Program-made: the position numbers and the translations under genes
In this document: positions 32,842-35,848 of the stretch, one piece after another
Layout: each line of letters starts with the position of its first letter
How positions within the stretch are numbered: the first letter of the stretch is position 1
The notes under the pieces: generated by a model
The model's input: only the letters and a program-made list of their open reading frames with translations
Told to the model about the DNA's origin: nothing
The model's database searches: none
Origin: Candidatus Latescibacterota bacterium
GTDB lineage: Bacteria > Latescibacterota > UBA2968
DNA: 64,000 nt
NCBI GenBank assembly: GCA_965198115.1
Contig: OZ240241.1
Location: 3,040,001 to 3,104,000 of the forward strand
Reading direction: 5' to 3'

Positions 32842-34050
32842 TCAGTTCTTTTCGGATGAATCATCGTCCCCACTCGACTCGCCCTCATCCGAATCGTCTC
32901 CTTCGGATGCTACGTCCGAGGTCTCACTCTCGGATGAGGCGTCATCCTTGTCGTCGAGACTCGAAAAGTCCAGATCGTCCATGTCCGGATCTTCCCATTC
33001 GAGCAGGTTCTCATCGTCCTTCTTCTGCCTCAGAACGACGTAAATCAAGCTCGCCCCACTCGCGTAGGCCGCCTGGACATAGGCGAGGAAGATTCCGGTC
33101 AGCAGGATCAGCATGACGGCCAGGATTCGTCCGGACCAGATGAGCGATCCGGATCTGCTGCCGCTCCCACTCGCCCAGGGCGACTCCATTTCGTCGAAGG
33201 TGTTCTGAATGATCGTGGTAAAATCGAACGGCGGCATGTAGCTCTGAGCGATCAGCATGATACTGGTCAGTTTGTCTCCCATGCCCAAACCGCACGCCCA
33301 GGTGATCAGACAAAGGGCGCAGGACATCATGCCGCTCAGCAGGACAGCTCCGATCCAGACCGAGACGAGCATCCAGGTCGTGTATGCCAGCATCCGCCAG
33401 GGCTGGCTCCAGCACATGGAGAACGACTGGATGAGAACCTCGAGCGTGTCCTCACCGACGGTACCCACGATGGCCGGTGTGAAGAGTAGCGAGGCGATGA
33501 GTGCCACGACGATGAACACGGCAACCAGCGCAGCGAAAAAGACGGGAATAAAGGCAAGCGCAAAGCCGACTTCGCCCACATACGGGATCAGTCCGGCCAG
33601 CCAACCGATGATCGCGCCTGTGACCACGAAGATGACGAGCAACACCAGCACGGCCACCGGGCCGAGGATCGCCCCGCCCCAATGTCCTTTCACGAATTTC
33701 CAGGCGTCACCCAAGGAGTAAAAGTCGTCACCGCGAAGCTGCTGATAGGTCATCTTGCACATCATGCAAGACGTGATGTAGAACACCACTGCGGCGAACA
33801 CCATCGCAAGAACGTGTAGGATCGTCCCCGTCATCGAAAGCGATTCTGGCGACGCCCCGGGAAACAGACCGTATCGATGCCAGACTTCGCCAGCCGTCGT
33901 TCCCGAAGCCACGAAGCCGATCGTCACAAGCAGCGAGTAGCCCACGTATGCCACGAGCAGCCCACAAAGCCCAGTCCAGACTTTCTTTCCCGACCAACCG
34001 AGTCGAATCACGCGGAACAGATCGCGTATGTCGAAATGGAGCTTGATCAT
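32842..34050 (-). CDS. Uncharacterised multi-pass membrane protein with acidic tail
   Basis: 402 aa, 7-8 hydrophobic segments, ends IYVVLRQKKDD plus D/E/S tail. 2 bp from the downstream gene. Confidence 0.75.
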   Translation of the reverse strand: MIKLHFDIRDLFRVIRLGWSGKKVWTGLCGLLVAYVGYSLLVTIGFVASGTTAGEVWHRYGLFPGASPESLSMTGTILHVLAMVFAAVVFYITSCMMCKMTYQQLRGDDFYSLGDAWKFVKGHWGGAILGPVAVLVLLVIFVVTGAIIGWLAGLIPYVGEVGFALAFIPVFFAALVAVFIVVALIASLLFTPAIVGTVGEDTLEVLIQSFSMCWSQPWRMLAYTTWMLVSVWIGAVLLSGMMSCALCLITWACGLGMGDKLTSIMLIAQSYMPPFDFTTIIQNTFDEMESPWASGSGSRSGSLIWSGRILAVMLILLTGIFLAYVQAAYASGASLIYVVLRQKKDDENLLEWEDPDMDDLDFSSLDDKDDASSESETSDVASEGDDSDEGESSGDDDSSEKN

Positions 34051-34124: not shown

Positions 34125-34153
34125 ATTATGAGGTGGGCCCCAGGAGAAGTCAA
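34125..34153 (-). promoter_or_regulatory. sigma70-type promoter of the 34050-30593 operon
   Basis: TTGACT-N17-CATAAT on the minus strand. Confidence 0.65.
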
Positions 34154-34192: not shown

Positions 34193-34242
34193 AAAATCGC
34201 CGCGCGAGAGGAACAACCAAAGCCTCTCACGCGGCAAATTTT
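34193..34242 (-). terminator. Intrinsic terminator
   Basis: Minus strand TTGCCGCGTGAGAGG-loop-CCTCTCGCGCGGCGA-TTTT. Confidence 0.75.
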
Positions 34243-34379
34243 CACACGGCGACGACCGTCTCGCGAAGCCACAAAGGACTCCGCCACAGTGACGGATCGT
34301 GTGCCGCTCGGTGACCGAGTTAGATTAGCCAGGTGCGCTGCCAGCGTTCTGCCTCACAGCCTGGCGCACGCACCTAACT
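34243..34379 (-). ncRNA. 3' structured part of a small transcript split by IS256 (5' part at 35754-35813)
   Basis: Hairpins TAGTTAGGTGCGTGCGCCAG/CTGGCAGCGCACCTGGCTA (across the TSD), CTCGGTCACCGAG and CACACG...CGTGTG. No long ORF. Confidence 0.5.
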
Positions 34380-35753
34380 GAGCTATAATCAAAAGGTGTG
34401 GAAAAAGAGAAAGGGCGACCCTACCCTTCCCGTGAGATAGTTGATTCACACAAAACCGGGTGAGAGGCCCGGTTGGGAAGGAGGATCGCCGTGAAGGAAC
34501 ATACGCATAGAGCCCCATTGAAGTCCATGCCGACGTGGGAGACGGTTGACGATTGGATCCGTGAAGAGATCCAGGGCCGGTTCCAGTCCATTCTGGAGGA
34601 GGAGGCGACCGCGTTCTTGGGCCGGTCGTGGTATGAGCGCCGAGCCGAGGTCGATAGCTCCAGGGGCTACAGGAACGGCTACGGCAAGCCCCGGCGTCTC
34701 TCGACGAGCTGCGGAACGATCAAGGTCCGGCGTCCCCGGGTTCGTGGTCTGGAAGAGCGGTTTGAAAGCCGCATCCTCCCCCTGTTCGCCCGGAGAACCA
34801 GGGCCATTGGAGATCTGCTTCCCGACCTTTATCTCCACGGTCTCTCCCAGGGCGACTTCGAGTTGTCTTTGCGTGCGCTGCTCGGTGATGGCGCGCCGCT
34901 TTCGCCGACCTCGATCGCTCGTCTTCGAGGGAAGTGGGAGGTCGACTTCCAGGACTGGAAAGAAAGGCGTCTGGATAATCGCGAACTGGTCTACGCCTGG
35001 GCTGATGGCATCTACGTCAAAGCCGGGCTCGAGCGCGAGAAGGCGTGTCTGCTGGTCGTGATCGGCGCGATGAGCGACGGCAGCAAGGAGATCCTGGCGA
35101 TAGAACCCGGTTATCGAGAGTCTACAGAATCCTGGCTCACGGTGCTACGGGATCTCCGGGATCGCGGGCTCGAACATCCTGTCCTGATCGCCGCGGACGG
35201 GAATATGGGCATCTGGGCGGCCGTTGATCAGGTCTGGCCAGAGAGCCGGCAACAACGGTGCTGGAACCACAAGATCCTCAACGTGCTCGACAAGGTCGCC
35301 AAGCGTGCACAGGCTGAAGCCCGCGCACTGCTCGTCCAGATCCCCTATGCCGGCACGAAAAAGGAGGCCGAGAAGCTCCGGAAACGCTTTGCCGCACGGT
35401 ATCGCTCACAGTTCCCTGCCGCCGTGGAGACGCTCGAAAGAAACTGGGATCGGATGGTCACGTTCTACGACTTCCCGAAGGAACACTGGAAACACCTGAG
35501 AACCACGAACGTCGTCGAGAGCCCCTTTGCTTCCGTTCGGCTTCGCACAAACGCCGCCAGGCGATTCAAGAAAGTCAGGAACGCCACGACTCTCATCTGG
35601 CGTACGCTCAAGGTCGCAGAGAGCCGATTCAGGAAACTCACCGCGCCACACTTGCTACAACAAGTCTACGATCAGAAACACTCAACCGAACCGCAGGTCG
35701 AAGCCGGGAAGATGGCCGCCTGATTTCTTTTACACACCTATTGACCTGAGCTC
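34380..35753 (+). mobile_element. IS256-family IS (1374 bp)
   Basis: IRs GAGCTATAATCAAAAGGTGTG / CACACCTATTGACCTGAGCTC. 9-bp TSD CACCTAACT at 34371-34379 and 35754-35762. Confidence 0.93.
34491..35723 (+). CDS. IS256 family transposase
   Basis: YRNGY, YAWADG, ADG, QRCWNH and RTTNVVES motifs. Confidence 0.95.
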   Translation: MKEHTHRAPLKSMPTWETVDDWIREEIQGRFQSILEEEATAFLGRSWYERRAEVDSSRGYRNGYGKPRRLSTSCGTIKVRRPRVRGLEERFESRILPLFARRTRAIGDLLPDLYLHGLSQGDFELSLRALLGDGAPLSPTSIARLRGKWEVDFQDWKERRLDNRELVYAWADGIYVKAGLEREKACLLVVIGAMSDGSKEILAIEPGYRESTESWLTVLRDLRDRGLEHPVLIAADGNMGIWAAVDQVWPESRQQRCWNHKILNVLDKVAKRAQAEARALLVQIPYAGTKKEAEKLRKRFAARYRSQFPAAVETLERNWDRMVTFYDFPKEHWKHLRTTNVVESPFASVRLRTNAARRFKKVRNATTLIWRTLKVAESRFRKLTAPHLLQQVYDQKHSTEPQVEAGKMAA

Positions 35754-35756
35754 CAC

Positions 35757-35792
35757 CTAACTACAGCCACCTCCACTGGTCATGTCTGTCAT
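35757..35792 (-). CDS. Putative 11-aa peptide MTDMTSGGGCS
   Basis: ATG lies 7 nt downstream of GGAGG within the extended SD AGAAAGGAGGTGGTCC. Ends in TAG. Confidence 0.4.
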   Translation of the reverse strand: MTDMTSGGGCS

Positions 35793-35819
35793 CGGACCAC
35801 CTCCTTTCTGTGTAGGCCC

Positions 35820-35848
35820 AACATAGGCCGCACAAAATTCGAAGTCAA
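35820..35848 (-). promoter_or_regulatory. sigma70-type promoter
   Basis: TTGACT (35848-35843), N17, TATGTT (35825-35820). Predicted TSS near 35813. Confidence 0.6.

Follow-up and report, generated by a model that had tools for sequence, protein, structure and literature searches.

What kind of gene lies in two pieces on either side of an IS256-family element on the minus strand of this Latescibacterota contig, and is it the RNA or its encoded peptide that has been conserved? In the window, i.e. the whole stretch of 64,000 nt that was analysed, the element occupies positions 34380-35753 (+), measures 1374 bp, has 26-nt inverted ends and carries, on the strand opposite to the RNA, a Mutator-type transposase gene (34473-35723; PF00872, E 3e-61). 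A 9-bp target-site duplication flanks it, with the 3'-side copy at 34371-34379 and the promoter-side copy at 35754-35762. All family traits, i.e. Mutator-type transposase, terminal inverted repeats and an 8-9 bp duplication, are thus present, and nothing about them is unusual. The genome contains 126 full copies of >98% identity (duplications of 8 bp in 74 and of 9 bp in 19 of them); this genome-wide expansion also includes numerous fragments and a second, related IS that is about 74% identical. The preliminary description had proposed that removal of the element and of one copy of the duplication restores a minus-strand unit, and all coordinates agree with this: the halves rejoined by coordinates give 238 nt with a fold z of -3.6, and they resemble the intact copy of the same genus, L003 (198 of 245 aligned columns match; z -3.2). 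The locus is a conserved stand-alone RNA gene that has been cut in two by IS256.

The promoter-side half opens with a sigma70-type promoter, TTGACT-17-TATGTT (35820-35848, minus strand; -35 at 35848-35843, 17-nt spacer, -10 at 35825-35820), for which a start site near 35813 is predicted from sequence only. Its elements are kept in 8/8 aligned homologues, and L003 matches the consensus at 10/12 positions. A first Shine-Dalgarno block, SD1, follows at 35794-35809 (-). Its pairing had been proposed with the canonical 16S tail and holds for the organism's own 16S gene, of which the genome has one: SD1 pairs with its 3' region over 16 nt including one G-U, or over 17 nt if a second G-U is allowed, 16 nt being an upper figure because it was counted on the 16S gene and not on the mature 16S end. 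The duplex with this tail amounts to -30 kcal/mol, and among all GGAGG-seeded sites in 8.4 Mb SD1 is the longest 16S-tail match outside the rRNA gene. Those flanking positions of SD1 that our search patterns left free keep the 16S pairing in the homologues (purine 74/74, T 74/74, C 69/74), and an upstream G beside SD1 is kept in 103/111. Other strong SDs before tiny ORFs occur in this genome at G000:C1:5956000 (+), 1348610 and 3615843 (+), where we noted 8 codons ending in Cys-Cys-Ser and a duplicated 4-codon ORF ahead of a second SD; none of these sites matches our model R1.

One base after SD1, the 11-codon mini-ORF MTDMTSGGGCS begins (35757-35792, minus strand; ATG at 35792, TAG at 35759-35757), which is intact despite the insertion. 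A second SD, SD2 (GGAGGTGG, 35767-35774, minus strand), lies inside it, with a core GAGGTG that begins 14 nt before the stop and also forms the 5' arm of the closing helix. Promoter, SD1, ORF and pre-stop SD2 are thus where they had been described, and their layout is kept in homologues. A further ORF that had been suggested to start from a GTG after the stop did not hold up, as it varies from 7 to 97 codons in 40 homologues; an RTG is found in 39/40 close homologues, but near the stop in only 7/170 other members, and we rejected this candidate.

The detached 3' half comprises a long post-stop hairpin followed by an anti-SD-like arm (together 34310-34370, minus strand), an order-specific multistem (34246-34308, minus strand) and a terminator-like hairpin with a short U tract (34193-34237, minus strand), the U tracts being longer in relatives. 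Fold prediction and covariation indicate that the anti-SD-like arm beyond the first hairpin (34317-34310) is the partner of SD2; in the window, one change turns a U-A pair of this arm into U-G. In 16 sequences, 24 of 63 predicted pairs have changed on both sides, the consensus structure having been predicted from the same alignment, and these changes lie mainly in the multistem (helices 5-6, 15/19 pairs) and in the terminator (helix 7, 6/11 pairs). In the predicted fold, the 5' part of SD1 is open, its 3' half is paired with a short ORF segment, and SD2 is buried. For the SD2 helix, the free terminal pair is kept in 37/46 with 26 double changes, the inner CAG having been used for the choice of rows. 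The 13 types of SD2 arm match their own partner with 2.54 of 4 pairs, compared to 1.36 by chance (0/20000), in the 140 of 193 cores that could be anchored, whereas 53 could not; a looser best-match test gave a modest difference (0.84 vs 0.78; 36/50 atypical arms). The alternative pairing of the preliminary description, a fold-back of TCCTTTGTG onto the 5' SD, needs a 2-nt bulge, and TCCTTT or CCTTTC occurs in only 4/42 homologues, so that we abandoned it. An ATCTC in the post-stop loop and an AGATG in the terminator arm co-occur in 38/41 homologues (e.g. L004) and are both missing in this genus (window 34340-34360 and 34225-34235); a loop-to-terminator contact is possible, and no compensatory change was seen.

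How widely is this unit conserved? Uninterrupted homologues, on which the preliminary description had made its case depend, do exist. BLAST with the 3' half found them in 8/60 relatives, all uninterrupted and all with promoter, SD1, 11-codon ORF, SD2, hairpins and terminator. The unit was also detected, with a pattern drawn from its 5' part, in 30/30 genomes of the family and in 21/22 of the sister family, almost always once, and a covariance model built from 46 copies gave full-length matches of 74-97 bits in 29/29 and 18/19 sampled genomes, i.e. intact copies in 47/48 sampled relatives of the order; in a third family, 55/64 genomes gave weaker matches. The ORF has 11 codons in all order-level homologues examined. 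Beyond the phylum, Actinomycetota copies that had been left out of the building of model R1 score 54-79 bits with it, and among the matches listed from two pattern scans (about 250 and 3900 stretches estimated in total) the layout recurs in Actinomycetota, Acidobacteriota, Binatota, Zixiibacteriota, Sumerlaeota, Planctomycetota, Armatimonadota and others. Several deviating loci were seen on the way: a shorter second variant with 10 codons in the Arg-Trp frame in another family (L251-L253), a similar pattern match besides the normal copy in one genome (G052:C1:6904619), and, where a 16S-antisense pattern matched next to a tRNA, a weak group I intron match of 35 bits (L290:101-316).

The view that the RNA has no known relatives is not supported, given its likeness to three described RNAs. 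The closest in layout are rreB and rreR of Alphaproteobacteria, which are likewise stand-alone short transcripts. They are complementary to the 16S 3' end over 16-17 nt and have a very short ORF, an SD whose 5' seed is open and whose remainder lies in a hairpin, and a peptide that is not conserved between lineages. A complement of at least 16 nt before a short ORF, which characterizes the rre type, is found here as well (the upper figure, with one G-U), and so are, judged by sequence and conservation, an own promoter and terminator around that ORF. The locus differs in its phylum, in its ATG start, in its 11 codons (14-18 there), in its length of about 240 nt, in the near-perfect second SD within a long closing helix, and in the extra 3' multistem. 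The complementarity of rreB/rreR enters a GTG start, whereas here the ATG follows one base after the 16-nt block, but an ATG case is also listed (PMC5711450). By eye, the peptide does not resemble the 14- and 18-codon peptides of RreB/RreR type, but RreB and RreR are mutually unlike, too. rreB co-sediments with the 30S subunit, is weakly translated and far rarer than ribosomes, and its half-life rises from 10 to 37 min once the start codon is removed; a 20-fold overproduction left growth unchanged, and synthetic RreB and RreR peptides were unstructured, although RreB is translated and both peptides are conserved inside their own clades (PMC5711450). An open seed in the SD has been proposed for rreB by Hahn et al. 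(PMC5711450). The accessible text of that paper mentions neither a second SD nor members beyond Alphaproteobacteria. Rre-like long-SD mini-ORFs of 24-32 codons also occur in Beta- and Gammaproteobacteria (L307, L348, L358, L363, L383, L286), which exceeds the range given in PMC5711450.

The second relative is Ms_IGR-5 (RF02471), which over the first 130 positions shares the order of motifs, i.e. 5' ACAC, SD1, GAGGUGGCUG, stop, hairpin, AAUC and CAGUCACC, but has its ORF in another frame and a different 3' end; moreover, its Rfam consensus structure leaves SD2 unpaired with CAGUCACC, unlike the pairing found here. The nearest intact copy scores 40.6 bits with RF02471 (E 1.8e-6), and all 10 Latescibacterota-type copies tested (26.9-41.2 bits) stay below the cut-off of 45. 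As far as the sources were accessible, Streptomyces and mycobacteria express Ms_IGR-5, which carries an NAD cap in M. smegmatis and is called uncharacterised (PMC8079986, PMC8780764, 10.1101/2021.12.14.472595, PMC10454040), and homologues have ribosome footprints in two mycobacteria (PMC4974804, likewise accessible in part); scr4389 is not established as the identity of the Streptomyces copy. Thirdly, the Caulobacter sRNA CC2171 (RF01867) has the same 5' SD block, and the accessible part of one source describes it as confirmed by Northern blot and without function (10.1101/2022.01.24.477521). Two rre-type loci score above the cut-off of its model (75 bits) and rreB-type loci reach 42-59 bits; the 5' half in the window gives 13.9 bits, from the SD block only, and copies from other families of the phylum at most 37.4. 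At gathering level, Rfam has no match in the whole window, and none to RF02471 at the split locus, because IS256 splits the RNA. In the literature covered, i.e. mainly openly accessible text other than the original Ms_IGR-5 and CC2171 papers, we saw no paper that connects rre with CC2171 and Ms_IGR-5, and none in which a pre-stop SD is described. The RNA of this locus is to be regarded as a variant of a known but unexplained kind and as a distant relative of Ms_IGR-5, and by analogy it would work like the rreB/rreR mini-mRNAs.

What exactly is conserved in this kind of RNA? Of SD length, ORF length and peptide, which had been named as candidates, the SDs stood the comparison together with the distance between SD2 and the stop; across lineages, ORF length, frame and peptide did not. 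Among the matches listed, 255 of 269 loci have a short ORF that ends 9-21 nt after SD2, and 14 were dropped (13 mostly ordinary genes and one cut by a contig end), which left 193 distinct cores. In 188 of these, the stop follows 13-15 nt after the beginning of GAGGTG, a count that is slightly favoured by the choice, where several start codons were possible, of one giving such a stop; the stop codon itself was absent from the search patterns. ORF length varies between 10 and 18 codons, peptides differ, and the ORF passes over the core in frame 0, +1 or +2 in 164, 24 and 5 cores, respectively, so that SD2 encodes Glu-Val, Gly-Gly (as at this locus) or Arg-Trp; frames +1 and +2 are both found inside Latescibacterota. 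As the distance is fixed over three frames, the RNA and not the peptide appears to be the conserved thing. Kinship among the sequences means that such counts overstate the number of independent events.

Since SD2 had been part of the query in the first sets, a third scan was done without it (about 3200 stretches estimated in total), which gave mostly alphaproteobacterial rre-type genes. Across 101 distinct ORFs of the rre type, pairing with the anti-SD is strongest 13-17 nt ahead of the stop, at -6.93 kcal/mol, compared to -3.43 +/- 0.27 in codon shuffles (0/200) and -3.08 at the ends of long ORFs of this genome. The peak is strong in Rhodobacterales and Sphingomonadales; in Hyphomicrobiales, the set to which rreB itself belongs, it is weak (-3.75, n=12). 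The Bradyrhizobium ORFs open with the same codons as the rreB primers in the supplement of PMC5711450. From weaker model matches, 19 of 20 regions turned out to be further units with TTG, GTG or ATG starts in two frames and with G(A/G)GGT 13-14 nt before the stop, and the remaining one is a partial duplicate (L448, G014:C1:4613928-4613971), in which the 5' end of the RNA is fused to unrelated sequence. In L435, L436 and L442 the ORF is four codons longer than the helix arm predicts, and a G run lies 13 nt before the new stop. What is added to the known picture is thus the fixed SD2-stop distance over three frames, the pre-stop anti-SD peak and the position of SD2 in a covarying helix.

How might such an RNA work? 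We propose that the locus is an IS256-split, conserved mini-mRNA of the rre/Ms_IGR-5 type, in which the ribosome, and not the peptide, likely mediates the function, and we give this reading about an even chance. A stand-alone, conserved RNA of ribosome-binding type, as had been suggested, is supported by the sequence comparisons. The open 5' part of SD1 would capture a 30S subunit, and the helix in which SD2 is hidden would be unzipped as the 11 codons are slowly translated. Once exposed, SD2 could base-pair with the 16S tail of the ribosome that has reached the stop codon. Because SD2 lies 13-15 nt before the stop, a terminating ribosome would have it 4-6 nt away from the codon in its P site, which is an ordinary SD spacing, and with the stop in the A site the ribosome may be held, and fold or decay of the RNA changed. 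Most likely, the outcome would be a translation-dependent switch of RNA fold and lifetime that reports free ribosomes. That the 30S subunit is bound tightly, that translation is weak and that decay depends on the start codon is taken over by analogy from rreB (PMC5711450); the opening of the helix, the holding of the ribosome at the stop and the resulting switch are what we infer for the present RNA. The persistence of this genome with its only detected copy broken speaks against such a mechanism.

What alternatives exist for this ribosome-directed mechanism? The conserved thing could be a micropeptide gene, with a functional peptide of 10-18 residues in each lineage that is kept low by the long SD and by structure. 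For this speak the ORF itself, whose start and stop are kept in the 255 of 269 loci listed, the conservation of RreB/RreR within clades and the translation of RreB (PMC5711450), the nearly invariant codons 5-10 within the order, a Thr kept by four synonymous codons in 66/71 Actinomycetota, and a Cys in 110 of the 193 peptides from the matches listed. The shared core, however, encodes EV, GG or RW depending on the frame, the Thr lies inside a nucleotide motif and is preceded by a codon that varies between R, G and W, and the unstructured synthetic peptides and the overproduction without growth effect (PMC5711450) speak against a peptide function, so that we consider a micropeptide unlikely. A structured regulatory or protein-binding sRNA, for which translation from SD1 would do no more than set the stability and SD2 would be a mere helix arm without any event at the stop, is in our view improbable as well. 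It would agree with the strong covariation throughout, with the start-codon-dependent decay of rreB (PMC5711450) and with the weak SD2 in Hyphomicrobiales, and the G-richness of SD2 could indeed be kept for folding alone, as SD2 is a helix arm, too. But it leaves the constant distance from G-tract to stop across frames and ORF lengths unexplained, and also the three loci that gained four codons.

The genomic neighbourhood bears on a further possibility, namely that the RNA serves the rplM-rpsI operon as a leader or attenuator coupled to translation. By tblastn, rplM is the next gene after the RNA on the same strand in 34 of 37 relatives from the order, with rplM-rpsI 300-550 nt downstream (loci L254-L279, L408-L426), and an upstream ORF with a terminator has an attenuator-like layout. 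Behind the terminator, however, lies a separate promoter of the next gene (TTGACT-17-CATAAT, 34125-34153, minus strand), which is not part of the RNA, is found at the same site in L003 and has its TTGAC box in 8/8 homologues checked; the place of rplM is taken by another gene in this genome, whose rplM is about 430 kb away, and in 2/37 relatives (in this genome at window 32842-34050, and in G001 and G010, a 402-aa membrane protein without Pfam match); neighbours in other phyla differ and are often convergent; and the consensus fold showed no antiterminator. A leader function is therefore quite improbable. Further downstream in the window, a branched-chain polyamine synthase-like gene (PF01861; 31805-32839, minus strand) and an LPG synthase C-terminal-like gene (PF09924; 30919-31821, minus strand) were seen.

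A plain ribosome sponge, by which 30S subunits would be stored or taken out of use, would agree with the stable SD1 duplex and with the co-sedimentation of rreB (PMC5711450), but ORF and SD2 would be superfluous, rreB is far rarer than ribosomes, and its 20-fold overproduction did not slow growth (PMC5711450); of the earlier suggestion of a ribosome-binding or -sequestering RNA, a ribosome-binding type is supported by sequence comparison, simple sequestration is doubtful, and we regard the sponge as very improbable.

Type I toxin mRNAs have a strong SD, a short ORF for a small hydrophobic peptide, a structured 3' part and an antisense antitoxin RNA. The suggestion that the locus is such an mRNA, with its SD hidden by its own 3' end, has this general layout on its side and is already close to refuted, as the peptide is too short (11 residues) and hydrophilic (family GRAVY mean -0.32, maximum 1.37), neither the frame nor the proposed fold-back is conserved, no opposite-strand promoter was found in a consensus scan of one intact copy (L003), and the gene is a single copy at a fixed chromosomal place.

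What does the insertion mean for this genome? As the duplication sits on the last codon and the stop, promoter, SD1, ORF, SD2 and stop remain together and untouched, and only the structured 3' half is detached, the helix partner, multistem and terminator now being 1.4 kb from the promoter-side half. The preliminary view that this copy is disabled hence needs to be divided: the folded RNA is likely lost, and with its helix partner, multistem and terminator cut off the proposed switch is likely lost as well, whereas the peptide could still be made. Any transcript of the split 5' half would run antisense into the transposase gene. In a search of this genome for a second copy, model R1 found the split copy, a chance match in a coding region and the 16S tail only, so that without a detected backup the folded RNA is probably dispensable for this IS-rich genome. 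In contigs of run X1, possibly the source sample, both flanks are continuous with the IS ends, and no empty-site allele was found among the contigs of four further runs including X1, contigs being known to drop rare variants. In four metatranscriptome runs of one study, of which the contigs were used, contigs cover IS256, and run X9 contains a 233-nt contig (depth 67.8) that extends 93 nt beyond the predicted start site; as this contig stems from an intact relative and overruns the start, it demonstrates neither transcription of the present copy nor the start site.

In a wider and clearly more tentative view, which we hold to be possible but rather doubtful, rreB/rreR, CC2171, Ms_IGR-5 and the copies described here could be one ancient “translate-to-unlock” RNA class of many phyla, in which the reading of a throw-away ORF exposes a second SD that clamps the ribosome at the stop. 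Such an RNA would be a dedicated sensor or holder of terminating ribosomes, in this order beside rplM-rpsI, and the IS allele would be a natural cut that separates the clamp from the lock. A single-copy RNA without known function is maintained in Actinomycetota, Acidobacteriota, Alphaproteobacteria and a large number of uncultured phyla, and the broken copy described here shows that one genome at least lives on when the folded form is missing. The frame switches point to the ribosome on the stop codon, and not to the peptide, as the place to look.
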